Shown here: positions 7,827-39,026 of the stretch, piece by piece
Layout of the letters: each line of letters begins with the position of its first letter
Position numbering within the stretch: the stretch's first letter is position 1
Translations under genes and position numbers: made by a program
The notes under the pieces: model-generated
Told to the model about the DNA's origin: nothing
What the model saw: the letters and a program-made list of their open reading frames with translations, nothing else
The model's database searches: none
From: a virus
Lineage: Duplodnaviria; Heunggongvirae; Uroviricota; Caudoviricetes
Direction: 5' to 3' (one strand)
Length of the DNA: 64,000 nt
IMG/VR virus record: IMGVR_UViG_3300028666_000024
Coordinates: 64,001-128,000 of that record

Positions 7827-7834
7827 TATTTATA
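7827..7834 (-). promoter_or_regulatory. T4-type late promoter (sheath operon)
   Basis: Exact TATAAATA upstream of gp18. Confidence 0.8.
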
Positions 7835-7898: not shown

Positions 7899-7927
7899 TT
7901 GCATTCTTTCCCGGCATGATATATATT
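7899..7927 (+). promoter_or_regulatory. Sigma70-type early promoter, class A
   Basis: TTGCAT-17 nt (contains CCGGCATG)-TATATT; architecture recurs at 12755, 12842, 20048. Confidence 0.7.
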
Positions 7928-11838: not shown

Positions 11839-12177
11839 TTAAATCTCTCCCAATACAACAAGCAAATCCAACGCAGCATTAACATTTGTAACTCCCTCTT
11901 TCTCAAGATTGGGAGAGTCAACTGATCGTGCAACATACAATCCTTCATGAATTCTATATACAACACCAAACTCATTCTTTCCTTCTATATTTGTGAAGAA
12001 TACTCTCCAAATCTCACCTTCACTAACAGACTCAAACTCAATACGAATATCACTTCCCTCAATCTTGTAAACTTTATCCTTCTGAATCTCTTCAAAAGCA
12101 ACAGTCTCTTCCAAAGGAATTTTATAAGTTTGATAACGATTTTTCAATGATTTTAATGTTATATAATCTTTGAGCAT
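11839..12177 (-). CDS. Hypothetical protein
   Basis: 112-aa ORF coupled to the upstream small terminase-like gene. Confidence 0.6.
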   Translation of the reverse strand: MLKDYITLKSLKNRYQTYKIPLEETVAFEEIQKDKVYKIEGSDIRIEFESVSEGEIWRVFFTNIEGKNEFGVVYRIHEGLYVARSVDSPNLEKEGVTNVNAALDLLVVLGEI

Positions 12178-12710
12178 TACTTTCTATCCTCCACAGTGAA
12201 TGTAGCATCAATTGCTGTCATTGTAGAATTATCTCTTGCTTTGTTCACCAAATCTAAAAGTTGAGATGCATTCATGGTTATCTTTCCACCATCAGGAATA
12301 TCTTTAACTGAATTTATTTTGTTCAAATCCATCTTTGCTTTGAAAATTGCTTGGTCAAGTTCTCGAAGTTCTTTATAAGCTTCAGTAAGAGTTTTTACAA
12401 GTTCACCATAAACTTTGTGAGAATATGCCTTGGTTCCTATTCTAATATCAGCTTCAAGTTTCTCCATGACAAGTTCAGTCTTTATAATCATATTTTTCAA
12501 ACCTTCACGAAGTTCTACTTGGTCTTCAAAAATTTCAACACCTGTTGTCTTTAATGCAATAACTTCATTCTTCTGTCTTGTCAAACTTTCAAAAGTATTC
12601 AAAAGAGTTAAGGAAGTCTCTTGAACATTTTCTTCAGGAACAAATGATGTATCTAATTTTTGAGAAATTTTTTCTAATGAATCAAAAACTTTCTCGTTCG
12701 ATTCTGGCAT
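12177..12710 (-). CDS. gp16: Probable terminase small subunit
   Basis: Helical protein with VYGELVKTLTEAYKELREL and ITMNASQLLDLV, typical of T4-like gp16; in the late operon upstream of gp17. Confidence 0.65.
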   Translation of the reverse strand: MPESNEKVFDSLEKISQKLDTSFVPEENVQETSLTLLNTFESLTRQKNEVIALKTTGVEIFEDQVELREGLKNMIIKTELVMEKLEADIRIGTKAYSHKVYGELVKTLTEAYKELRELDQAIFKAKMDLNKINSVKDIPDGGKITMNASQLLDLVNKARDNSTMTAIDATFTVEDRK

Positions 12711-12732: not shown

Positions 12733-12740
12733 TATTTATA
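12733..12740 (-). promoter_or_regulatory. T4-type late promoter (terminase operon)
   Basis: Exact TATAAATA upstream of the 12710 start. Confidence 0.75.
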
Positions 12741-12754
12741 ATTTTGGATTTTAT

Positions 12755-12783
12755 TTGCAATTTATCCCGGCATAGATTATATT
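12755..12783 (+). promoter_or_regulatory. Sigma70-type early promoter, class A
   Basis: TTGCAA-17 nt (CCGGCATA)-TATATT. Confidence 0.7.
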
Positions 12784-12841: not shown

Positions 12842-12870
12842 TTGCTTTTTATTCTGGCATGTTGTATATT
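12842..12870 (+). promoter_or_regulatory. Sigma70-type early promoter, class A (tandem)
   Basis: TTGCTT-17 nt (CTGGCATG)-TATATT. Confidence 0.7.
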
Positions 12871-12923
12871 ATTCATGAAAGAGATTTAAAATAAATTCAT
12901 AAATATTTTAAAAGGAGATTCAA

Positions 12924-13280
12924 ATGCCGTGCGATTCAGTCATAACAGTCAAAATGTCCGAGAAGGTTAATTACGAAATCTTTCAGGCCGAAGCTGCTGC
13001 AAAGGCTATGGGAATGGATGTTGTTAAACGGGGAAATTCCCTCTACATCACTCATAACGGTGTAAGTATGGTTCTCCGGGATGGAACTCTATCGGCAGAA
13101 GTTCAGTCTTACAATTATTCTGACAGAAAGAAGGAAGAGGAAAAGATTCAGGAAGTTCGAAAAAAACTCAACCTCGGATATCAGCAAAAGAACGTCGAAA
13201 AAGATATGCTCAGAAACGGATTCCGGCCTCTCTCTGCACCCCAAGGACCGACTATGAAGGTTGAATGGGTGAGAATCTAA
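12924..13280 (+). CDS. Hypothetical protein (weakly DUF1257/Ycf35-like)
   Basis: 118 aa, strong RBS; MPC start and LNLGYQ...KDMLRNGF C-terminal pattern. Confidence 0.55.
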   Translation: MPCDSVITVKMSEKVNYEIFQAEAAAKAMGMDVVKRGNSLYITHNGVSMVLRDGTLSAEVQSYNYSDRKKEEEKIQEVRKKLNLGYQQKNVEKDMLRNGFRPLSAPQGPTMKVEWVRI

Positions 13281-13282
13281 TC

Positions 13283-13873
13283 ATGCCTTATACCGTGACA
13301 TTTATCTGCACAGGAAACACTTGCAGAAGCGCTATGGGTGAAGCAATAACCAAATCACTACTGCTTCCATATAAGAATATCAAGGTTGATTCTTGTGGTA
13401 TTCAAACTACCACAGGAACCCCTGCCTCTGTTAATTCTAAAATTGTTAGCAAACAAAACGGTATTGATCTTAACAAACATCGTTCCCGGAAGATGACTTA
13501 CAAAATCCTTCAGAACTCAAACTTGATTCTTTGTATGGAAGATTTACATATGGATAGAATTATATCTCTCTATCCTGAATTCAAAGACAAAATCTTCAGA
13601 CTGAAAAGTTGGATGAAAGTTTCAAAACCTACTAACGGCAATAAAAAAATTCAACACCCTACAGTGAAAACAAATAAGTCTTTCGATTCATATTACGATA
13701 AAGATATATGGAACTCTTTTTTTGGTGATTATGATGAAGAAAATTATGCTGACAACATTCCAGATCCTTATGGCGGCAACCTCAAAGAATATGAGATGAC
13801 CTTCAAAGAGATATATCAGGAAGTAAAAAGAGTAGTTCCTTTTATCATTGCTGCTGCTAATAAAGGTTCTTAA
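13283..13873 (+). CDS. Low-molecular-weight phosphatase, YwlE-type (protein-arginine phosphatase-like)
   Basis: P-loop FICTGNTCRSAMGE and catalytic D-loop IPDPYGG; start taken at ATG 13283. Confidence 0.85.
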   Translation: MPYTVTFICTGNTCRSAMGEAITKSLLLPYKNIKVDSCGIQTTTGTPASVNSKIVSKQNGIDLNKHRSRKMTYKILQNSNLILCMEDLHMDRIISLYPEFKDKIFRLKSWMKVSKPTNGNKKIQHPTVKTNKSFDSYYDKDIWNSFFGDYDEENYADNIPDPYGGNLKEYEMTFKEIYQEVKRVVPFIIAAANKGS

Positions 13874-16800
13874 GAAATTCAACTTCAAAACCAATTGGAT
13901 AGTTTTGAATTGTAGCTATATCTCCATGTAGAGCCGTTATATCTCCTGTCTCTCCTATGAATGATGTTACTCCTTCAATATTTGGGCCAATAATTCTAAC
14001 ATTATCACCAATTTTAAAATTTTCTTTCTTCTTTTCCCCGGTTTTATTTTCAATTTTTTTAGAATCTTCCTCTTTAGAACTTCCTTCTTTGTTAATTAAT
14101 TTTAAACACTTATATGTATCAGAAAATATATTAAAACCATGATAAGGTTTTGTTATTGATGAATATTGATGAAATAATTTATTTTCATCGTCCCATTCAA
14201 TAGTCATATACATTTCCTGAATTTTCTTAACTGTTCCTTTCATTCCTATATTAAAAACTATACCACTTTCGATAAAATCTTTTATGACTTCTATTCTATC
14301 ACCAATTTTAAAATTTTCTTTCTTCTTTTCCCCGGTTTTATTTTCAATTTTTTTTTCAATTTTTTTAATCTTATCATATCCAATATATCCACTCATAGAA
14401 GATACCCAATCTACCCAACACACAGTAGAGTAGACGCTTATAATAACTCCGGTATCTCCTCTTTTTACACTTCCAATTGTTTTAATACATTCAACAAAAT
14501 CACCACTTTTAAACTTTCTTTCTTCCTTCTTTTCAACAGGAATATCTTCATCTTTGATTAATTCTAAACTTTTACCATAATAACTACCGTACTCATCAAA
14601 ATAATCATTTGTATCTAAACTACGTTTTAATTTATATAGACCAATAGTATATATTTTTCTGCCGACAGAGGTGGAAGGTATTGTTTGTATTTTCCCCCAT
14701 TTGCCGAGATAATCATCCTTCGTATTATAAATATTATTACCTATAATATTTACTTTATCACCAATTTTAAACTTCTCTTTTAATTTTAAAGAATCATCAA
14801 GTCTTAGAAATCCTAATCCGAAATATGGTGCTGATATTAGTGACATTTTTCTTAAATTTTTATCAGCAACATTAGCAACTTTCTTATTCCAACTAACAGT
14901 TATTAAATTTTTTGAACCAGTAGAGTCAGCGGTACGAACTATTCCAGTTTCACCTTTTTTATACACAAAACCATTCTTTATAAAATCTTTCATAACCTCT
15001 ATGGTGTCTCCAACCTCAATACCTATTGGAAATTTGTAAGATGAATCTATAGGTATACGTGTATCTTTTTTCTTTCCTTCCTGATTCTTTTCAACTTTTT
15101 TAACCTGAGTAGGATAAAATGTGGAAGTTTTTGTTTTTTCCTTATTCCACACTTCATAATTTGTAAATTTACCATTAGTGCTATAAACCTCTTTTACTTC
15201 ATATTCTTCGCCTACTTTATATGAGTTCCTAGTAGTGTGAAGAATTTTAACAGTATCCCCTGCCTTTATACCCTTTTCTAATTCATTTCCAATTACTTTT
15301 AAACTTTCCTTTGGAAATAATTTTAAAACTGCGCTCGTTAAAGTAACCTGATAAAGATTCTTATCCAGAAATATTAAACCTACTCTACCCTCACCACCAA
15401 TATATAAGGTATTATCTTTATCGTCAGGCCCTACAATTTGAACAAAATCACCAATTTTTATTTTTTTAGAATCTTCCTCTTCATCTTTGATTTTTTCTAT
15501 ACTGTTCTTTGGAAAAAGATAAGAATGAGGATTATCACCTACTACTACCCAATAAGTATCGGAATGAGGATAATCACTATAATTTTCAATTGTTCCTATC
15601 TCTCCTATTTTATCTATACCTGAAACAGTTTTTCCAATTATCTTAACTTTATCACCTATTTTAAAAGTTTTCGAATTCTCTTCAGAAGACTTTTTAACAA
15701 TTTTAAAATATTCAGGAGTTAAGAAATTTACACCAATAACAAAGTTTTTTGAACCATCAGTCCATACTTCTTTATCCCACTCAATCTCTATTCCTGAACC
15801 TTGATTACTACCCATATAAATAATTTTTGCTTGCTCACCTACACGAAAGGTTTTACTATCTTCTGTGAATTTTTTTACAACTTCAATTATATCACCTATT
15901 TTTAGGGTTATATCTCCAAACTTAAAACCATGCATATTTCCATCATAATCTTTCTTTTCTTCAAACGGTTTATCTGTCTTCTTAACATCATTAAAACCAT
16001 ACCAATTTTCAAGTTTATATGTATACATAATCTTATATGGTAATTTTCTATCTTGCATATCAACCTTAATAATTTTACAGATGTCTCCTTTATGTCCATC
16101 TTTTGTTGTTACAATTTCTACAACATCTCCAACCTTTAAAGCATTTGCAAAAACATTTGAAAATTTTCCCTTCTTAACAACTTGTAAATTTTCTTTTTTA
16201 AGAAGGACAGAAGATTTTTTATCTAAAGTGTAAATTTTAATAAATTCTTCATCAACATATTTAACCTCAGAAATAGAATCAACCATTTTTTGTGCTTCAT
16301 TATTAAGTTCTGGTGCTGACTTGATATAGACATAATCACCCTTCATAATCTCACCATCAAGATCTGCAAGAAGTTTATTTCGAAGATTTATCATACTCTT
16401 TAAAATAACAGGTTGTTCTTGAGTTTTATAAATTTTTAAAGCAGAGTCAAGAATTTTTTCTATTTTTATCTTTTTATTTTTATATAAACTTTCTATAGAT
16501 TTACAACACAACATTTGATGACCGTTAAAACTTTTTGTAGTTTTTATTAGTTTATCTAAATAATCTCCTTTTTTTGTTTTACCATTTTTAATAAAATATT
16601 TTACACAACTTATTATTATTTTTGTTTTATTTTTAACTTCTTTTGAATTTTCTGGATTATTTAACATATCTTCAGCAATATAAAGAAAAACTTTGTATGC
16701 ATTTATCTCTGTTAATGCGCTGAAAATAAACCATATTGAATCTGATTTACTAGCACAATTTTTTGCTAATGTTTCTAAATCAAGTGGTAATTTTGCACCA

Positions 16801-18125
16801 ATCCATGTAATTTGCCATTCTTTAGGAAAGTTGTTTATATAATTGATATTAGAATGATCTTCAGGATTTGGTTTAAATTTTCCTTTTAAAACCTTTGTTA
16901 CAAAATATTTAAAAAGTTTTAACTGATCTTCTGAAATTTGAAAATCAGCAACTGGTCTGCGTTCTCTTTCTGGTCTTGGTTCTTGATTGGTAATATAATC
17001 ATCATCGTCATTGTATTCTTCACTCGAACCTAATATATTTCTTGATGTTTCTCTTGGTATTAAATCTTTTCTCGTATCATAACTATCTCTTTGTGGAGGA
17101 AGATTATCGTTGTCAGGTATATCTTCAACCTTATCGGCAGAGTGACCAAACAAATCCTTATAAGCAGCATAGAAGGCCGGTTGAATTTGTGGAGAACACC
17201 ACGGAATTAACTTCTGATATGAAATTGGTTTTGTTTCATCTTTCTCATAAACAAATTCTGAGTTTCTGTGTTTATCATATGTCTTTATATATTCTCCTTC
17301 TGCATTTTTTAGAGGTATTTTATTACCATAAATATCTCTTTTATATGGATGTGAAATATCCGCTTTCAAATCTATAAGAGTGCTACTAACATGAACACCT
17401 CTCCATTTAGTTAATATAGATCCATTATTATGCTCAATATCAACAACATGGTCTATTGCTCCATATATTTCTCTACTCTTTTCATCTAATTCAAACTTCT
17501 TATAAGCAGACTCCATAGCCATCCAAGCATCAGCGATATCCTTCCACGCCTTACCACCATATGAATACTCCATAGCCGCGATATCCTTCCACGCCTTACC
17601 ACCATATGAAGAATGCCACATATTATATCTTTGTGAAAAAGCTACTTTACAAAAATATACAAAGTCTGAAGGATTAAACCCACTAATATGAGAAATTACC
17701 TTCCATCTTATTTCATATCTATTACCTTCTGCATTTAATCTTTGTAAACTATAACCATCTTCATCTGGATTTATAGCATTTGCAAGTTTTTCAAACATAT
17801 TTTTAAGATATTCATTTTTTTCTAAAAATTCTTCTTGTAAAGATGTATCATAAAATGCTTGAAAATGAACAATTTCACAAGCACATGCCCGGAGAACTGC
17901 TTCATTCAAAAATTTATAAAGACCTTTGATTATCTGTTTGTTTGCATATTCCAAAGAAAATCCCAATTCTTCATCCCTTAAATCTTTGAATGCATCTGCG
18001 TCTGTCTTGTGAACGGAGAACATTGCATAGAAGTCGGCAACAAGTTGGTTAGGATCTTTAGGAATTCTATAATCAAAATTAAATCCTTCTTTTAAAACAC
18101 TTTTATAAAAATCTGAAAATTTCAT
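13857..18125 (-). CDS. Giant tagged protein (about 1422 aa) with 11 KOW/SH3-like repeats in the C-terminal half
   Basis: Start MKFSDFY overlaps the gp15 stop (TAATG); repeated (F/I/L)K(I/V)GD.V.(I/V) units. Confidence 0.7.
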   Translation of the reverse strand: MKFSDFYKSVLKEGFNFDYRIPKDPNQLVADFYAMFSVHKTDADAFKDLRDEELGFSLEYANKQIIKGLYKFLNEAVLRACACEIVHFQAFYDTSLQEEFLEKNEYLKNMFEKLANAINPDEDGYSLQRLNAEGNRYEIRWKVISHISGFNPSDFVYFCKVAFSQRYNMWHSSYGGKAWKDIAAMEYSYGGKAWKDIADAWMAMESAYKKFELDEKSREIYGAIDHVVDIEHNNGSILTKWRGVHVSSTLIDLKADISHPYKRDIYGNKIPLKNAEGEYIKTYDKHRNSEFVYEKDETKPISYQKLIPWCSPQIQPAFYAAYKDLFGHSADKVEDIPDNDNLPPQRDSYDTRKDLIPRETSRNILGSSEEYNDDDDYITNQEPRPERERRPVADFQISEDQLKLFKYFVTKVLKGKFKPNPEDHSNINYINNFPKEWQITWIGAKLPLDLETLAKNCASKSDSIWFIFSALTEINAYKVFLYIAEDMLNNPENSKEVKNKTKIIISCVKYFIKNGKTKKGDYLDKLIKTTKSFNGHQMLCCKSIESLYKNKKIKIEKILDSALKIYKTQEQPVILKSMINLRNKLLADLDGEIMKGDYVYIKSAPELNNEAQKMVDSISEVKYVDEEFIKIYTLDKKSSVLLKKENLQVVKKGKFSNVFANALKVGDVVEIVTTKDGHKGDICKIIKVDMQDRKLPYKIMYTYKLENWYGFNDVKKTDKPFEEKKDYDGNMHGFKFGDITLKIGDIIEVVKKFTEDSKTFRVGEQAKIIYMGSNQGSGIEIEWDKEVWTDGSKNFVIGVNFLTPEYFKIVKKSSEENSKTFKIGDKVKIIGKTVSGIDKIGEIGTIENYSDYPHSDTYWVVVGDNPHSYLFPKNSIEKIKDEEEDSKKIKIGDFVQIVGPDDKDNTLYIGGEGRVGLIFLDKNLYQVTLTSAVLKLFPKESLKVIGNELEKGIKAGDTVKILHTTRNSYKVGEEYEVKEVYSTNGKFTNYEVWNKEKTKTSTFYPTQVKKVEKNQEGKKKDTRIPIDSSYKFPIGIEVGDTIEVMKDFIKNGFVYKKGETGIVRTADSTGSKNLITVSWNKKVANVADKNLRKMSLISAPYFGLGFLRLDDSLKLKEKFKIGDKVNIIGNNIYNTKDDYLGKWGKIQTIPSTSVGRKIYTIGLYKLKRSLDTNDYFDEYGSYYGKSLELIKDEDIPVEKKEERKFKSGDFVECIKTIGSVKRGDTGVIISVYSTVCWVDWVSSMSGYIGYDKIKKIEKKIENKTGEKKKENFKIGDRIEVIKDFIESGIVFNIGMKGTVKKIQEMYMTIEWDDENKLFHQYSSITKPYHGFNIFSDTYKCLKLINKEGSSKEEDSKKIENKTGEKKKENFKIGDNVRIIGPNIEGVTSFIGETGDITALHGDIATIQNYPIGFEVEFLKNLY
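14003..14354. repeat. 58-bp direct repeat (14003-14060 and 14297-14354), in frame
   Basis: Encodes KKIENKTGEKKKENFKIGD twice, 294 bp apart. Confidence 0.9.
17533..17610. repeat. 33-bp perfect direct repeat (17533-17565 and 17578-17610)
   Basis: Encodes SYGGKAWKDIA twice; 45-bp period keeps the frame. Confidence 0.9.
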
Positions 18126-18961
18126 TATGCTAAGTTCTCCCCTTGAAACCACTCGTAAGATAAATTACTATTTAGATTTGTTCCACTCAAATTAAAATCT
18201 CCCGGTGTCAAACTTCCAGATAAAGGAACATCATCAGATAAAAGAACACCAGATAATCCTATACTATCTATTTCTGAATTATTTATAAAATATCTCGTAT
18301 TGATTACTTGTATAATACTTGCTGGACTCCAAGGACGATACACAACAGCTTCAACAGTCAATGGTAAATCTAAATTAATTTGTCTGTAATCATTCTCACC
18401 GATATCTTCTGTAATCCTTGGACTGATACTATCAATATTTACCGGAAAAGTTCTTTCAATATTTAAAAAACTAAACTCCTTAACCCTCAACTGAAGTTTT
18501 GGATTGAAATAAGGAAGAATATTTTCCAACAATTGAAACATAGACTCATATGAATCTGTTCTGATATATAACATAAAATTCAAATTGTATGGAGCAGGTT
18601 GAATATCTTTCATAATTTCACCAACACTATTTCCATCTACTCCTACTGTATCAGTCAACCACTCTCTTGTAGCTTCGACAGATGTTGCTCGGTCAGGGGC
18701 ATATGTCACTCCCTGAAAACATAATGCCATTCTCGGAAGTTTGATATAGAATCTTTGACCGTGCTCCTGATTATTTTTGTCAAAGTAATGATTCTGAAGC
18801 AACCACTGATATTCTTTCTCAGGTTGGTTTGCCATGATAGGAACTTCAACTGGATTTCCAACAGGATTTCCAGTTTTATCATATGTCTTTACAATCAAAT
18901 TTTTAAAAGTGTTTAATAAAGATTCTGTAATATTATACATCGTTCTAGGGTAATAATACAT
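18125..18961 (-). CDS. gp15: Tail terminator / sheath stabiliser
   Basis: YYY..T..N....L..F..L.V, VEVPI, LPRMAL, PAPYNLNF.L, FQLLENILPYFNP pattern of T4 gp15. Confidence 0.8.
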   Translation of the reverse strand: MYYYPRTMYNITESLLNTFKNLIVKTYDKTGNPVGNPVEVPIMANQPEKEYQWLLQNHYFDKNNQEHGQRFYIKLPRMALCFQGVTYAPDRATSVEATREWLTDTVGVDGNSVGEIMKDIQPAPYNLNFMLYIRTDSYESMFQLLENILPYFNPKLQLRVKEFSFLNIERTFPVNIDSISPRITEDIGENDYRQINLDLPLTVEAVVYRPWSPASIIQVINTRYFINNSEIDSIGLSGVLLSDDVPLSGSLTPGDFNLSGTNLNSNLSYEWFQGENLA

Positions 18962-20047: not shown

Positions 20048-20076
20048 TTGCAAGTTATTCCGGCATGAATTATATT
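20048..20076 (+). promoter_or_regulatory. Sigma70-type early promoter, class A
   Basis: TTGCAA-17 nt (CCGGCATG)-TATATT, back-to-back with the late promoter. Confidence 0.7.
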
Positions 20077-33124: not shown

Positions 33125-36100
33125 TTAAAGAAAAAATCTTGCTTTTTGTATCGCTGTAAGTCCTGTAGATGTTCCAGACTGTGATCCCCAAATCAATCCA
33201 CCAGTTGCACTATTTGTAATTGAATAGGTATATGCCATATAAACAGCAGATCTTACAATATTAGAAATTCTTAATTCATCTATTAGACCATTAAACTTTT
33301 GAGAATGTGGACTATCTGTAAGTGATCCAACATTATTATTTGCAGGAGTTCCAGTTGTATTAAGAGTATAACTACCTGTGTTATTTTGTGCTCCATTTAC
33401 ATATAATATTGGAGTATTTGCACCACCATACGTTGCTGCCACATGATACCATGTAGTATTTGAAAGTGTGTTAAATGTTCCAGTCGATGTCAAAGTTGAA
33501 CTACCAAGGTAGAATTTTAATTGATTGCTTAACCCATCACTAATACCAGTTACCCATCCATGAGAGGCAGATACTATATAATTAGCGAATATAGTTCTTG
33601 CTGACTGCGTTGCATTTAGATATATCCAATGTTCACAAGTAAAATTTGTTATGGCCCCAACAAAGTTTGGAGTATCAATCCATCTTGAACTTGCTCCATC
33701 AAATGATGCTGCACCACCAATTTTTCCGGCAGAGGAAGGGGTAGAACCATTATTGGTCATTGTATTCTTACCAGTCGAATCTACAATACTTAAAGTTGAC
33801 GCTGAACCCATATGCATCACCAACAAGTAATTATCATTCCATGTCCTTTGTGGGTTTGTTTGTGTACTTGCTGTACCGCAACCATAAAAACAAACTATTG
33901 TTGTTGTTCCTGTAGATATGTATGGAATATTAACCCAAAATTGTGCAGTAGCAACACCACCTGATACAGAACCAGATTCTTTTTCAGCATATAATAAATT
34001 TCCAACATTATCAGTAAATCTAAGATCACTAAGGTCAGATTTACAAACACCCCCTATATTAGAATCAGTAATTGGAACCGATATTGCATATTGTGTTAAA
34101 ATTCCAGTTGGTGTTGTTAGTGTAATTGTTTTATTATTAGTATAGCTATTTCCATCAACTGTCCAAGGACCAGAACCTGATACACTTGGTGTTATAGTTT
34201 TAGATTGGGTGATTGTATATCCATTGAAATTTACTAATCCAGTAACGATAGTATAGTTAAGGCAAGATATACTGGCACCAAGCGTAACTGTTAAATTGGT
34301 AGTAGCTTTGAAGTTGATTGTTCCCCAAGAAGCACTAGTGTAGGTTACAGTTGATGTGGATGTTACATTCCATATCTCAGACCCAGCAACAATAGTATGC
34401 GTTGATCCTATTACTACATTTCCAGAAGAATTGATTGTGCAAGTTCCAAAATTTTGAGTGCAAGTTCCGGTATTATAGGAACTACCATCATAAGAAGTAC
34501 AGGTTATTGCACTTCCTCGATAATAGTAATAAGTATTTCCAGCAGCATTATTTGTACCTACCCTGAAAACCCCACAAGAAATTGTCTGTCCATTAAAGTC
34601 AATTGTAACTCCGGCAGAGGCGTTATTTACATATAACATTGTAGTGCATGAAAAGGTTCCCATAAATGTTATGCTTGAATTTGTATATGGGGATATTTGA
34701 ATGTTACCAGCACCAGTATAGGATAATGTTGGTATATTTGTAGTCAGGTTAGCACTATACGCTTGCAGACTAACCAAGCCTGAACCGTTCCATACTGACC
34801 CTGTTGACGTAGAATAAAATGGAGTTGATGAGGTTTGTTGAAATTGTGTTGTTGCATTCTGCGTGAACGTTGCATTGCTTCCTATTGCAATACAAACTAC
34901 GGAAGTAACTGGCCTGATATTTACCAATGTTCCTACAAGGGTAGCACTACAACTATTATTTATAATAAAATTAGAGTATACAGCAGTCGCTCTGTAATCA
35001 GCAAACACACAACCCGTACCGTTATAGGTTACAACAGTACTAGTCGAGGTGACAGTAGCATTTGGGATGGTTACTGTTCCACTATTAAATGCTATACCAT
35101 TGCCTAAATTTCTCGTTCCACCTAAATCGATTGTTGATGGATAAGCAACTGATAAAGTTTGCCCACTAATAGACCAAGTGTTAGTATGACCTGCTGTGCA
35201 TATAATAGACCCAACAGTAAGTCCAGCAGTTGATATAGCATTAACAGAAACTGTTCCATTAAATAGTAAAACATCCGTTGATAGTAGAGCACCTGAACCC
35301 GTATAATTAGTACTGAGGTTCATATCGGTACTACCACCAGAGTTCCACGTCCTTACAGTATATTGTGAAAGCTGAAATATTGAATAACCGTTATAGGTTA
35401 CTGCTCCTGTAATTGTGAAGGCATTACAATACACTGCACTATTGAGTGTAACTGTTTTACCAGATGCGATAGAAATGTTATAGAATAAGGAACCATATGT
35501 ATATAATGTACAATTATTAGTTAAGTTAATCGTCGATGTTCCGCAATAAATATAATTATTGGATGCGTATGATCTAAAAGTACTACTACAATTAATAGTA
35601 CAGGAATCAAAATAATAGTAAGTTGCGCCAGTATTATATGAATTCATATAAAACGATGCGCATGTTATTGTCCCCGATCTGAAATGGAAAGTTGTAGATT
35701 GAAATCCGTTGTTACCGAGTGTTAAAGTAGCACAATTAATGTTATAAGTGTTTAAATCTATATTAGTTGTATACGTTGTCGGGGTATATATATCTACAAT
35801 ACCAGCAGTAGATAGATTTCCTGTAAGCTTTATAGTTGATGAGGCTGCATTTGGATTAATCGTTATCTCTAAATTTGATAAAGTTGTAAATGCAGGTATA
35901 GTAGAAGTGCCAGATACATTACCATACATAAACAGAGTAGCTATTGTACCAGTCCATGTATATGTACCCAAGAATGAAAAGAAATCAGATGCTGAGGTGT
36001 TAGTCAGTACAATTGTTACACCCGTATGAACAAGTGTTGCTGCATTACCTAATGTAATAAGGGGACCACCTCCGGTAAAGGACGGAGCCTGACCTGTAAA

Positions 36101-36541
36101 AGTTATTGACATACTTGCATTGACAGTTAATGATAGATATACGGCATTCGATGTTCTGTTTTCTGTCCAAGTGCATCCAGTACCATTACAAATTATTGCA
36201 CAGGAGGTTGTAGTCATAACAGCATTAGCTATTGTAAATGTAATACTGTTGCCATTCAACGTAACACCATTACCAAGGTTTCTTGTCCCATTACCATTAA
36301 TAATAGAAGTTGCAGCTACAGTTAGCGCATAACCTCCCATTGACCATGTTCCAGTATGCCCTGTAGTAACTGAAACAGAATTGCAGGATAAACCAGCGGT
36401 AGCAGTAGCATTTGCAATAGAAGATGTTCCATCAAATGATAAATCCCACGTAGACATGGCACCAGTACCACCAGTATAATTACCAGAGGCACACATGTCA
36501 CCATTTGATAATGCATTTGTCCATTTAGCTGTATTTGCCAT
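33125..36541 (-). CDS. Large adhesin/fibre-like virion protein with beta-helix-like repeats, DUF2341-like and LamG/concanavalin-like domains
   Basis: T/S/G/N-rich; DLSDLRFTD..FWVNIP..I..FYG; GKIGGAASFDG, WYHVAATY, FNGLIDELRISNIVRS. Confidence 0.7.
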   Translation of the reverse strand: MANTAKWTNALSNGDMCASGNYTGGTGAMSTWDLSFDGTSSIANATATAGLSCNSVSVTTGHTGTWSMGGYALTVAATSIINGNGTRNLGNGVTLNGNSITFTIANAVMTTTSCAIICNGTGCTWTENRTSNAVYLSLTVNASMSITFTGQAPSFTGGGPLITLGNAATLVHTGVTIVLTNTSASDFFSFLGTYTWTGTIATLFMYGNVSGTSTIPAFTTLSNLEITINPNAASSTIKLTGNLSTAGIVDIYTPTTYTTNIDLNTYNINCATLTLGNNGFQSTTFHFRSGTITCASFYMNSYNTGATYYYFDSCTINCSSTFRSYASNNYIYCGTSTINLTNNCTLYTYGSLFYNISIASGKTVTLNSAVYCNAFTITGAVTYNGYSIFQLSQYTVRTWNSGGSTDMNLSTNYTGSGALLSTDVLLFNGTVSVNAISTAGLTVGSIICTAGHTNTWSISGQTLSVAYPSTIDLGGTRNLGNGIAFNSGTVTIPNATVTSTSTVVTYNGTGCVFADYRATAVYSNFIINNSCSATLVGTLVNIRPVTSVVCIAIGSNATFTQNATTQFQQTSSTPFYSTSTGSVWNGSGLVSLQAYSANLTTNIPTLSYTGAGNIQISPYTNSSITFMGTFSCTTMLYVNNASAGVTIDFNGQTISCGVFRVGTNNAAGNTYYYYRGSAITCTSYDGSSYNTGTCTQNFGTCTINSSGNVVIGSTHTIVAGSEIWNVTSTSTVTYTSASWGTINFKATTNLTVTLGASISCLNYTIVTGLVNFNGYTITQSKTITPSVSGSGPWTVDGNSYTNNKTITLTTPTGILTQYAISVPITDSNIGGVCKSDLSDLRFTDNVGNLLYAEKESGSVSGGVATAQFWVNIPYISTGTTTIVCFYGCGTASTQTNPQRTWNDNYLLVMHMGSASTLSIVDSTGKNTMTNNGSTPSSAGKIGGAASFDGASSRWIDTPNFVGAITNFTCEHWIYLNATQSARTIFANYIVSASHGWVTGISDGLSNQLKFYLGSSTLTSTGTFNTLSNTTWYHVAATYGGANTPILYVNGAQNNTGSYTLNTTGTPANNNVGSLTDSPHSQKFNGLIDELRISNIVRSAVYMAYTYSITNSATGGLIWGSQSGTSTGLTAIQKARFFL

Positions 36542-36542
36542 A

Positions 36543-39026
36543 TTAGAATCCTGCTGGATCTTGTGCTAATAAATACCAATTAGTACCAAAATAAATAAAC
36601 TTTAAAAACATAGGTTTTCCTGCAACAGTTGTTGTTGGTAATGGAAGATTTGTTCCTGCCTTAAAAATAATATTCCATCCTAATGTTTGTGCTCCACCAT
36701 TATCTAAAATAGCAATAAGTAATTCATTTCCTGTAATTGGTGATCCTGATGGAATTCCAAATGTTGTTCCCGCAGAAAGAGCAGTTATTTCAAAATAATT
36801 ATCTTGTGAACTACCTACAGGAACAGGAGAAGCAGATGTTGTTATACTTGTTCTTGTCCATGTCTTTGCACCAGCAGGAGAATACAAAGAATTTAAAAGT
36901 GTTGTAAATTCTCCATAAGTAATATGTTTCAATATATTAGATGCAGAGATATCACTTATAGCAATACAATCCCCACTAACAAGAGTTGATTTATCTGTCG
37001 CTCCGTTAATAAGAGTTCCAATTGTATTTGCTGTTTCATTTCCTGTATTTGTTCCAGATGTATTTCCCATTATTGTTTTTTGTGCAGTTGTTAATAAATG
37101 GGTATTTGTTCCGTCAGAAATATCATCACATGTTAATGTTATATCTGCTGAAAGAGAATGATTATTTATTTGTCTACTTGTTGGAACAGCGCCAACATCT
37201 CCTGCCACAGCACCTGTTTTATTTATCTTACTCCATGCAATTGCTGCACCACTTGCAACTTTAACATCTGTAACTGTTCCATCTGTAGGTGTTCTTGTAT
37301 CAGTAAGACGAGAATCACCAGAACTTACAAGTCCTCCATGTGCAGATGTTGTTAAATTAGAATGTGTTGTTAAATTACTTTGCACAGTAGATGCAGAACC
37401 AGAAGTGTCAAATGCACCAGCAGCATATGTTGAAGCAGTTCCTAATGAGTCTATTGCTGTTTTTTCTGCGTCTGTGCAATATCTTTTATTTAAACTATCT
37501 GCTATATCTGAGGTTGTTGTATTTGAACCGGAAGTAATAATACCATCTGTTCCATAAGTAATTTTAGTATAAGTTGCCCCGGTTATTGGTGTGTGTGCAG
37601 TTTGATAATATGAAGGTAATTGACCACCAAGTTTTGCACTATCTGTTGCTTGTGAAAGTATTCCTAAATATGTTGCTGCTAAATTTAAAGAAGTTATTAA
37701 TGAAGATGCTGTACCGGCAGATTCAAATGTTGAAGAATTATATCCACTATCACTTATTAATGTTCCACTTCCATCAGTAAAATAACAAAAATTTCCAGTT
37801 GTTGATGATGAAGGACCGATAACTGCACCGTCAATATTTGTTCTAACAACAGAAAAATTAGATCCAACATCAGATTCTATTCCACCAACACTATTAGTAA
37901 TACAAATAAGTAAATCAAGATTTTTACAAACATGTCCTGAAGATCCACCTATTTTTCCTCCCGGTGACAACTTCCAAACCCAACCAACAGAGGCAGGAGG
38001 ATAATTAGGATTTGAACTGCAATCTAAAACTCCTTGAAAAGTAAGTGCTCCGTTTGAATTTAAAAGATTATTAATAAGATTTGTTAAAGATACAACTTGA
38101 GAATATAAAAGTTTTGCAGAAGGATATTGAGTATCTGTAGAACCAGAAGTAATTGTTGTAACTTTATTTATAATATTTTCTGAATTAATTATATCTGTTG
38201 CTGAAAGAATTATATCAGCACTAAGACTTTTATTATTAATATTACGAGTTATTGGAACACCACCAAGACCAGATAATGTTGGAAGAATCTGATCTCCAGT
38301 ATTTACTCCGGAAAGATTGGTTATAGCAGTTACTTGTATATCTGTTATTCCAAGTAATGATTCCACAGAAGATTTTGAAAAACCACTTGATAGTAAATAA
38401 TTTGATAATTTTCTAATTGTTCCATCTGAGATATTATCAAGAGTTGTTCCTACTGGTAATCCACCAAGACTAGATAATGTTATAGTTGCTGCTGCACTTG
38501 TCGCTGCACCAGAAGGATCTGCATTAACATCAAGATATGTTAAATTAATATCAGCACTAAGACTTTTATTATTAATATTACGAGTTATTGGAACACCACC
38601 AAGACCAGATAATGTTGGAAGAATCTGATCTCCAGTATTTACTCCGGAAAGATTTGAAAGAGATTGAATATTTCCAGAAGTTACATTTAAAAGATTTTCA
38701 ATATCTTGTAAATTTTTTGGATTTGAGTTCCATTGATTTATTTCAGCACTTGTTATAGTATGTGCAGGTGATGCTGAAAAAATAGGATCTGATTCTTCAA
38801 AAGTTAAAACTGGTAATGTAAAATTTAATATTGCTGAAGTTGAAGTTCCTACATTAACAACCGAAGCAGAAGTTCCAGATAATACGGTTCCTATTTGAAT
38901 TGTTGCTGCAAGACCGGGAGAACCACTAAGAACACCTATTCCCGGATATGTAGGATAGAGTTCATCAGGTAAAGAATTAAGAGCAAAAATATCATCGGCA
39001 CTTAGGAAAAAATTTAAATCACTCAT
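36543..39026 (-). CDS. Tail-fibre-like protein
   Basis: IGTV.SG..ASV.N.GT.T.AILNFTLP, ESDP.F.AS, TITGATYTKITY..DG.IT.G, SGVNTGDQ fibre modules. Confidence 0.7.
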   Translation of the reverse strand: MSDLNFFLSADDIFALNSLPDELYPTYPGIGVLSGSPGLAATIQIGTVLSGTSASVVNVGTSTSAILNFTLPVLTFEESDPIFSASPAHTITSAEINQWNSNPKNLQDIENLLNVTSGNIQSLSNLSGVNTGDQILPTLSGLGGVPITRNINNKSLSADINLTYLDVNADPSGAATSAAATITLSSLGGLPVGTTLDNISDGTIRKLSNYLLSSGFSKSSVESLLGITDIQVTAITNLSGVNTGDQILPTLSGLGGVPITRNINNKSLSADIILSATDIINSENIINKVTTITSGSTDTQYPSAKLLYSQVVSLTNLINNLLNSNGALTFQGVLDCSSNPNYPPASVGWVWKLSPGGKIGGSSGHVCKNLDLLICITNSVGGIESDVGSNFSVVRTNIDGAVIGPSSSTTGNFCYFTDGSGTLISDSGYNSSTFESAGTASSLITSLNLAATYLGILSQATDSAKLGGQLPSYYQTAHTPITGATYTKITYGTDGIITSGSNTTTSDIADSLNKRYCTDAEKTAIDSLGTASTYAAGAFDTSGSASTVQSNLTTHSNLTTSAHGGLVSSGDSRLTDTRTPTDGTVTDVKVASGAAIAWSKINKTGAVAGDVGAVPTSRQINNHSLSADITLTCDDISDGTNTHLLTTAQKTIMGNTSGTNTGNETANTIGTLINGATDKSTLVSGDCIAISDISASNILKHITYGEFTTLLNSLYSPAGAKTWTRTSITTSASPVPVGSSQDNYFEITALSAGTTFGIPSGSPITGNELLIAILDNGGAQTLGWNIIFKAGTNLPLPTTTVAGKPMFLKFIYFGTNWYLLAQDPAGF
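38212..38654. repeat. 107-bp perfect direct repeat (38212-38318 and 38548-38654)
   Basis: Identical DNA encoding NLSGVNTGDQILPTLSGLGGVPITRNINNKSLSADI, 336 bp apart. Confidence 0.92.

Follow-up and report, generated by a model that had tools for sequence, protein, structure and literature searches.

A predicted YwlE-like cysteine phosphatase in a two-gene island of a T4-like phage, with sequence signatures that fit phospho-arginine

Protein arginine phosphatases with the fold of LMW-PTPs (low-molecular-weight protein tyrosine phosphatases) are known from YwlE of Bacillus subtilis and Geobacillus stearothermophilus and from PtpB of Staphylococcus aureus, where they oppose the kinase McsB. Here we describe a phage gene whose product is predicted, from its sequence, to be a cysteine phosphatase that is competent for catalysis and belongs to the YwlE-like LMW-PTP branch associated with Sua5. 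The gene lies at 13283..13873 on the plus strand of a 64,000-nucleotide stretch of viral DNA, hereafter the window, which covers bases 64001-128000 of a 169,231-bp IMG/VR virus record (IMGVR_UViG_3300028666_000024) with direct terminal repeats and 32% guanine-cytosine (GC) content. Our preferred reading, to which we would give a probability of about 0.5, is that this protein of 196 amino acids, P0001, is a pre-late phosphatase that prefers phospho-arginine and is aimed at the McsB-ClpC pathway of the host. In bacteria, the phosphorylation of arginine by McsB plays the part of a degradation tag, and it is also being put to use for targeted protein degradation there. P0001 itself belongs to a known enzyme family and it is the carrier, a phage, that is unusual; the literature searched yielded no paper that describes an LMW-PTP or an arginine phosphatase encoded by a phage.

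The predicted phosphatase and its signature residues

The first-pass annotation of this DNA had pointed to an open reading frame (ORF) with a P-loop CTGNTCRS and a D-loop DPYGG, and both could be located in the translation, which starts with MPYTVTFICTGNTCRS, and in alignments. The P-loop spans residues 9-16 (13307..13330, plus strand) and holds the nucleophile Cys9, Arg15, Ser16 and, at its fifth position, the specificity residue Thr13, while the D-loop spans residues 161-165 (13763..13777, plus strand), provides the general acid Asp161 and is of the YwlE type, DP[YF]GG. The P-loop agrees with the N-terminal pattern C-X5-R-S/T of the LMW-PTP superfamily, the gene is intact with a complete catalytic set of Cys9, Arg15, Ser16 and Asp161, and the pair Asp161-Pro162 is invariant in our alignment A1. 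The Pfam family LMWPc (PF01451) matches the protein with an E-value of 1.4e-29 and 103.6 bits against a cut-off of 23.2. When chains in the PDB are ranked by sequence, the best match is 4PIC, the arginine phosphatase YwlE of Geobacillus (E 1e-20), followed by 4EGS and then by 1ZGG and 4KK3, YwlE of B. subtilis being also among these top hits, with Wzb of Escherichia coli (E about 1e-14) and chains of ArsC (E about 1e-7) further down. The AlphaFold model is confident except for one stretch, with a mean predicted local distance difference test score (pLDDT) of 86.7, a predicted template modelling score (pTM) of 0.82 and 144 residues above a pLDDT of 90. Foldseek places 4PIC, 4ETN, 4EGS and 4KK4 at ranks 1 to 4 and gives a probability of 1.00 to many LMW-PTP chains, with target-normalised template modelling (TM) scores of 0.8-0.9 over the four-stranded Rossmann-like alpha/beta fold. 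PHROG 12429, for which no function is annotated, also matches P0001 at E 1e-21. The gene call recorded on the 169-kb contig (P0002, 179 residues, window 13334-13873, plus strand) starts at Met18 and so omits the catalytic P-loop; the form with 196 residues is the gene call on a 6.1-kb Logan contig of identical sequence.

Position 5 in the P-loop has been linked experimentally to the choice of substrate. The Thr found there in YwlE (Thr11) recognises, together with the Asp, the guanidinium group, to which it hydrogen-bonds, and its replacement by Ile shifts both YwlE and DARP of Drosophila from phospho-arginine to phospho-tyrosine (PMC7772506; bioRxiv 2026.01.13.697720). The initial claim that Thr in CxGNTCRS characterises arginine phosphatases is thus in line with the published work, in which this residue governs the preference between the two substrates (PMC7772506). 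P0001 has in common with YwlE and PtpB the fold, the catalytic residues, the P-loop CTGNTCRS and a D-loop of the form DP[YF]GG. Identity is approximately 27-36% along the full length and reaches at most about 41-45% when the N-terminal half alone is compared; its DPYGG is the same as in the YwlE of Bacillaceae and unlike that of the YfkJ-like paralogue. It differs from YwlE and PtpB in an insert of 38-45 residues, in lying outside the Bacillota YwlE clade of the best tree (a grouping with that clade not being rejected, as described below) and in that its function is predicted. Unlike YwlE, moreover, it is encoded by a T4-like phage, stands outside the ywlC(sua5)-ywlE-rpiB neighbourhood and is paired with a DUF1257-like gene.

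An unbiased HMMER search, which covered 1.84 billion representatives, gave as the closest relative a protein of 156 residues, P0121, that is 46% identical over the BLASTP alignment and 58% over the matched stretches. It has the same P-loop as P0001, a D-loop DPFGL and no insert, and it is encoded on a 5-kb contig (L002) whose layout matches that of the phage island. Thr at the fifth position is common to both phage copies. Among the best 150 hits of this search a P-loop could be recognised in 139, and its fifth residue was Thr in 85, Ile in 21, Ser in 19 and another residue in 14. A word-indexed homologue search had given only proteins of the type C[TS]GNTCRS with DP[YFI]G, a result that we set aside as circular because the candidates were picked by words shared with the query. 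The two signatures of P0001, the Thr in the P-loop and the DP[YF]GG D-loop, fit those to be expected of a phospho-arginine phosphatase.

The insert of roughly 45 residues that had been noticed ahead of the D-loop is indeed present and measures 38-45 residues by alignment. It is specific to this lineage, occupies approximately residues 113-157 (13619..13753, plus strand) in the alignments, lies between the strand ending in KIFRLKSW and the D-loop, and was seen in none of the homologues compared. P-loop and D-loop are 152 residues apart in P0001 against 99-130 in 119 homologues, in a superfamily where the DP motif typically comes about 100-120 residues past the P-loop, and the extra columns number 38 relative to P0121 and about 41-45 relative to others (about 41 relative to alignment A1). 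Its N-terminal half is basic, with an isoelectric point (pI) of 10.6, whereas acidic and many aromatic residues make up its C-terminal half (pI 4.05, seven Tyr, Phe or Trp). Most of the insert is predicted to lack order, two short helices apart, pLDDT falls below 50 at residues 115-135, and there is no second copy or repeat of it in the phage genome. Since a few Bacillota homologues have shorter acidic insertions at the same point, the site appears to be a permissive one beside one wall of the active-site cleft, and from this position next to the D-loop the insert probably changes how substrates reach the site or dock there. P0121 is without it, so the function of the family does not need it, and by comparison of the two phage sequences it appears as a recent addition in one branch of the phage lineage.

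The island, its promoters and its phage

The record is identified as a T4-like myovirus by PHROG matches to a tail sheath, a large terminase, a gp15-like sheath stabiliser, a major head protein, a portal, a gp43-type polymerase and a replicative helicase, and the major capsid protein shares only about 32% identity with those of the nearest cultured T4-like phages. A DNA run from a rhizosphere metagenome, probably the source sample, was the only sequencing run that contained the region, and no RNA runs were listed. The phosphatase gene is the second of a two-gene island on the plus strand that is set within late structural genes on the minus strand; it is bordered on one side by the terminase gene and ORFans, and on the other by genes for a protein of 1431 amino acids and for a gp15-like protein. 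The first gene of the island (12924..13280, plus strand, with AGGAG at 12913-12917) encodes a protein of 118 residues that starts with MPCDSV and has a predicted DUF1257-like fold. The phosphatase gene begins 2 nt past the stop of this partner and overlaps at its 3' end by 17 nt with the convergent late gene for the 1431-residue protein; no intrinsic terminator was found 3' of it.

The divergent intergenic region 5' of the island is 213 bp long and holds two tandem promoter-like sites with sigma-70-like motifs. The site P1 (TTGCAATTTATCCCGGCATAGATTATATT; 12755..12783, plus strand) consists of TTGCAA, a spacer of 17 nt with a conserved CCCGGCAT, and TATATT, and the site P2 (TTGCTTTTTATTCTGGCATGTTGTATATT; 12842..12870, plus strand) follows 87 bp 3' of P1 and 54 nt ahead of the ATG of the first gene. 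Within the window the motif TTGC-N10-GGCAT-N4-TATATT has four exact copies on the plus strand, where chance would give 0.02 matches with one mismatch allowed, and a slightly looser class, TTG(A/C)-N10-GGCAT-N4-TATATT, has nine copies in the 169-kb genome. These are found at window positions 7899-7927, 12755-12783, 12842-12870 and 20048-20076, all on the plus strand, and at genome positions 906, 10446, 41438, 47173 and 169031. Across the nine copies the spacer (T/C)CCGGCAT is nearly invariant, which suggests a candidate site for the binding of a regulator; most of the copies checked precede short ORFs, and several drive plus-strand islands within the late module.

The neighbouring genes are marked as late by a box of the T4 type, TATAAATA, which precedes the divergent late gene for a protein of 177 residues (box at 12733..12740, minus strand; gene at 12177-12710). 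The same box is found 5' of the minus-strand genes at window positions 7827 (tail sheath), 20032, 2332 and 4508, and no such box stands ahead of the plus-strand island. Because of the type of its promoters, the island would be transcribed by a host polymerase of the sigma-70 type before the late genes, and we infer a pre-late timing that does not distinguish early from middle. In the first-pass annotation the phosphatase was placed behind two tandem early promoters. Both sites exist upstream of it, are sigma-70-like and belong to the nine-copy class; the word early, on the other hand, comes from promoter type and orientation, and what the two sites directly precede is the ORF for the 118-residue protein, which had gone unmentioned and to which the phosphatase gene is tightly coupled as the second gene.

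Zero sequence homologues of the 118-residue partner were found and no Pfam family matched it even at E 10, and the likeness to DUF1257 comes from a structure match in the Atlas with a TM score of 0.67. With a GC fraction of 0.437 (0.454 at third codon positions) against a mean of 0.319 for the phage ORFs, the gene is more than two standard deviations higher, as if it had been acquired from a source richer in GC. The contig L002 repeats the arrangement, for there an ORF of 111 residues starts with MPCDSV, is 34-39% identical to the partner and overlaps the start of the phosphatase gene. On the 3' side follow a large minus-strand gene (932 residues), the equivalent of the gene for the 1431-residue protein, and then a T4 gp15 gene that is 65% identical, and the contig starts with the promoter element GGCATGAATTATATT, the same as in P2, ahead of the cassette. 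Since L002 shares the genes, their position and the promoter element, we take the cassette to be a conserved unit of a rare phage lineage. Against 50,697 phage records the DNA of the island gave zero matches, and tblastn with the phosphatase protein returned only 10 weak records, most of them short or bacterial-looking contigs. Scans of IMG/VR for close relatives gave none with the phosphatase and none with the gp15-like neighbour, and an alignment of two gp15 proteins recovered just two distant contigs. As these scans yielded no closer relatives, conservation across the phage lineage is judged on L002 alone.

The convergent late protein of 1431 residues (window 13857-18152, minus strand) contains about 12 copies of (K/N)FKIGDxVxIIG spaced by approximately 60-90 residues, a pattern that suggests a chain of small beta-domains.

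Arginine phosphorylation and the competing substrates

A link between phosphatases of this type and McsB can be seen in cellular genomes. From a motif scan with one genome per species, the 80 best Thr-type relatives were taken, and these belong to Bacillota as well as to Eisenbacteria, Planctomycetota, Kiritimatiellota, Verrucomicrobiota, Gemmatimonadota, Zixibacteria, Ignavibacteria and Lentisphaerota. The kinase was checked in the first 50 of the genomes, and a McsB-like kinase of the family PF00217 was present in 47 of them, many from diderm soil phyla, against 1 of 14 controls. The association of Thr-type phosphatases with McsB is real at the level of phyla and extends beyond Gram-positives. 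A member of the Limisphaerales (Verrucomicrobiota) has a gene for a McsA-like protein with an UVR motif followed by mcsB and clpC (L111:2819-7172, plus strand), and a member of the Gemmatimonadales has a gene for 157 residues without a Pfam hit, mcsB and clpC (L113:676-4745, minus strand). Since mcsB-clpC operons occur in genomes of these two phyla, a host bearing McsB need not be Gram-positive.

In the reading that we propose, the unmodified RNA polymerase of the host would transcribe the cassette before the late genes, and the enzyme would prefer phospho-arginine and, during infection, counteract a McsB-type protein arginine kinase of the host. It would remove the phospho-arginine degron by which proteins are handed to ClpC-ClpP, would dephosphorylate McsB itself, or both, with the outcome that phage proteins would be spared degradation or a stress response would be blunted. 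The host could be any bacterium that bears McsB, whether from diderm soil phyla or from Gram-positives. A precedent for a phage that targets ClpC-ClpP is Gp53 of SPO1, an early adaptor-like protein which is reported to modulate ClpCP of B. subtilis by binding ClpC (PMC6873191). It is a protein unrelated to P0001 with an unrelated mechanism, and the parallel is conceptual only.

Several observations weigh against this proposal. In a careful maximum-likelihood tree of 95 rows the phage pair, itself supported at 100/95, joins P0131 (CTGNRMRS) at 97/91 and falls inside a clade of 11 rows (99/86) whose other members are Ile-type or degenerate, several of them being Sua5 fusions. Because of this placement in an Ile-type clade, the Thr may be a lineage-specific change, and orthology to YwlE is not established. 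Specificity by one residue is not absolute either, as even among characterised enzymes the Ile-type PtpA shows substantial activity towards phospho-arginine (bioRxiv 2026.01.13.697720). In the phage genome there is no match to PF00217, the family of McsB-type kinases, and the early timing of the island is a matter of promoter resemblance only. As for the co-occurrence, its genomes were picked by the Thr motif, and both traits are near universal in the sampled phyla: of 101 Verrucomicrobiota genomes sampled, 98 have the PF00217 kinase, and in the phylum to which the Ignavibacteria and Zixibacteria genomes belong the Thr-type P-loop pattern occurs in 115 of 121. The association consequently stands at the level of phyla and is not a contrast within groups, there being hardly any variation within a sampled phylum by which Thr-type genomes with and without McsB could be compared.

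The phylogeny nonetheless speaks on both sides. A quick tree of 242 rows unites the named Bacillota proteins in a clade of 82 leaves, 79 of which have Thr (Shimodaira-Hasegawa-like approximate likelihood ratio support 89), and the phage pair is outside it. When the pair was grouped with the YwlE of Bacillaceae in an approximately unbiased (AU) test, the difference in log-likelihood was 23.5 and p was 0.241, so that the grouping is not rejected. Of the YwlE-type identity first proposed for P0001, what holds is the Thr, the DP[YF]GG loop and the rank of 4PIC as the top match by both sequence and fold; the position in the tree, outside the Bacillota YwlE clade and nested among Ile-type and degenerate relatives, does not bear it out, although the AU test does not reject a YwlE grouping. 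Since tree and AU test leave the phylogeny without a verdict, our functional call rests on the residues.

The nearest relatives also point to another partner. Sua5/TsaC (threonylcarbamoyl-AMP synthase) is fused to the nearest LMW-PTPs or encoded directly 5' of them (P0179, P0218, P0190, P0146 and P0184; locus L097), and P0131 directly follows a Sua5 gene, a linkage that we take to be the same as that of ywlC and ywlE in Bacillus. Because Sua5 fusions and linkage recur, the whole bush looks like a single Sua5-associated orthologous group in which the fifth P-loop position is variable, and the linkage is a hint that this LMW-PTP branch may have a role connected with translation. In the careful tree the cellular proteins closest to the phage pair are Sua5/TsaC-linked LMW-PTPs of uncultured bacteria (P0131, P0148 and P0164, and the fusions P0179, P0218 and P0190), which are like P0001 in domain length and in a D-loop of the DP-x-G type. 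Unlike P0001 they have an Ile or a degenerate fifth position (CTGNICRS, CTANICRS, CTGNRMRS) and no insert, and they are bacterial, in Sua5-adjacent, Sua5-fused or ordinary chromosomal contexts. The family also includes a protein of 1679 residues from an Elusimicrobiota metagenome-assembled genome (P0122), in which a phosphoenolpyruvate (PEP)/pyruvate-binding-domain protein precedes a row of five LMW-PTP-like domains with mostly degenerate P-loops (CAGNACRS, CSFNTSRS, GAGYTDRS, CTHNTSRS and CAANHSRS).

It is rather unlikely, in our view, that P0001 is instead a phospho-tyrosine or dual-specificity LMW-PTP acting on tyrosine-phosphorylated proteins of the host, such as the bacterial tyrosine kinases (BY-kinases) that serve the synthesis of capsule or exopolysaccharide, or different regulators, with a Thr that is neutral or broadens the range of substrates. 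The nesting of the phage pair among Ile-type LMW-PTPs in the best tree is what such an enzyme would show, although the AU test does not reject a placement with the YwlE of Bacillaceae. The fifth position switches often, with changes for Thr numbering at least 12 on the 95-row tree and 21 on the 242-row tree, and cross-reactivity of PtpA and PtpB between phospho-arginine and phospho-tyrosine has been reported (bioRxiv 2026.01.13.697720), but both phage copies have the Thr, and its exchange for Ile is an experimentally shown switch. Proteins of the Wzb type, too, are still strong matches to P0001, with a target-normalised TM score of about 0.9 in addition to the E-value given above. Wzb and Etp of E. 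coli, phospho-tyrosine LMW-PTPs whose partner BY-kinases are Wzc and Etk, share with P0001 the fold and the catalytic Cys, Arg and Asp, yet the NCBIfam models of Wzb and Etp score it at 63-71 bits against equivalog cut-offs of 243-247. Enzymes of the Wzb/Etp type are marked by Ile or Leu as the fifth P-loop residue and by aromatic or basic residues behind the DP of the D-loop. The P-loop of the two E. coli proteins is CVGNICRS or CTGNICRS and their D-loop DPYRKS, in contrast to the Thr13 and DPYGG of P0001, and the phage D-loops DPYGG and DPFGL as a pair differ from the DPYR and DPYY of Wzb, Etp and the YfkJ-like protein. The genes of Wzb and Etp adjoin those for a tyrosine kinase and for polysaccharide export (wza-wzb-wzc, etp-etk), whereas the neighbours of P0001 are the terminase, ORFans, the 1431-residue late protein and the gp15-like protein; they are phage structural genes, and no BY-kinase or polysaccharide gene is nearby.

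A second alternative, which we likewise judge improbable, is that the phosphatase acts with its DUF1257-like partner on a phage-specific or McsB-independent substrate; this could be a different phosphoramidate, a small molecule, or a phage or host protein that the partner or the insert brings in. The two genes are kept together in two phages and are tightly coupled in each, through the gap of 2 nt here and an overlap of stop and start in L002, but the DUF1257 likeness of the partner is one of predicted structure only. The linkage and fusion of the cellular relatives to Sua5/TsaC gives a translation-related context apart from McsB, and the phage is without an arginine kinase gene of its own; against this stands the strong correlation of the Thr-type signature with McsB in cellular genomes. 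An insert beside the active site suggests altered selection of substrates, though its absence from the sister phage means that it cannot define the function of the cassette. Arsenate reductases of the ArsC pI258 type, which are coupled to thioredoxin, have the same fold and are represented among the PDB hits. It is highly improbable that P0001 is one of them, since the weak match of NCBIfam arsC (44 bits) is far under the curated cut-offs of 174-215, the pair of second and third redox Cys (equivalents of Cys82 and Cys89) is incomplete, with only C84 in P0001 (ILCMEDL..HMD) against TLCGDAADKC in ArsC of Cytobacillus, and the DPYGG loop and the P-loop Thr are features of phosphatases.

Host clues, other viruses and significance

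Some properties of the phage bear on the kind of host in which it may live. Shine-Dalgarno-like sequences stand ahead of 61% of the crude ORFs against a background of 11%, and this frequency together with promoters of the type TTGAC-17-TATATT argues against a host of the Bacteroidota type. The genome encodes nine tRNAs (Asp, Asn, Pro, Met, Gly-UCC, Leu-UAA, Arg-UCU, Gln-UUG and Leu-CAA; genome positions 35520-37953, 109327-109487 and 139163-139243), most of which read A/T-rich codons, and this suggests a host of higher GC content than the phage. A further gene (P0316, 163 residues; genome 47259-47750, plus strand; L108:160-651) is preceded by a promoter of the nine-copy class, and its product has a signal peptide and ends in SYF. 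By language-model features this protein resembles clusters of outer-membrane beta-barrels (score 0.97), which are commonest in Acidobacteriota, and a product of such outer-membrane-like character hints at a diderm host. The OmpX-like P0316 gave no Pfam match and no sequence homologues, and PF13505 finds zero outer-membrane barrels in the phage.

In viruses the Thr-type LMW-PTP motif is rare, as a motif-based scan found it in 7 of 2.9 million IMG/VR contigs. Three of the seven (58-192 kb) carry stand-alone genes for 138 residues amid small cysteine-rich ORFs, and one has a Thr-type form of 210 residues. In the remaining three (117-193 kb) a CSGNTCRS domain is embedded in giant proteins of 1479 or 1885 residues (L102:2019-6458, L107:2019-6458 and L105:33-5690), in which Pfam recognised nothing besides the LMW-PTP domain and which may be polyvalent proteins. 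A broader scenario, which we put forward as tentative and somewhat doubtful, would have P0001 as a viral eraser: a lytic T4-like phage of a McsB-bearing and possibly diderm soil bacterium would make the phosphatase ahead of its late genes, strip the degron and silence McsB, and in this way shield its own proteins from ClpC-ClpP, the insert or the DUF1257-like partner would direct the enzyme to its targets, and the same counter-measure would have arisen repeatedly in other viral contigs.

Should the enzyme turn out to act on phospho-tyrosine instead, it would be an ordinary accessory gene of its phage. If P0001 is a phospho-arginine phosphatase, it would mean that phages contend with the McsB-ClpC pathway, and the protein would offer a compact natural tool with which to erase phospho-arginine. 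The co-occurrence of Thr-type phosphatases and McsB past the Gram-positives, together with the two mcsB-clpC operons, gives a wider range of bacteria in which to seek this biology.

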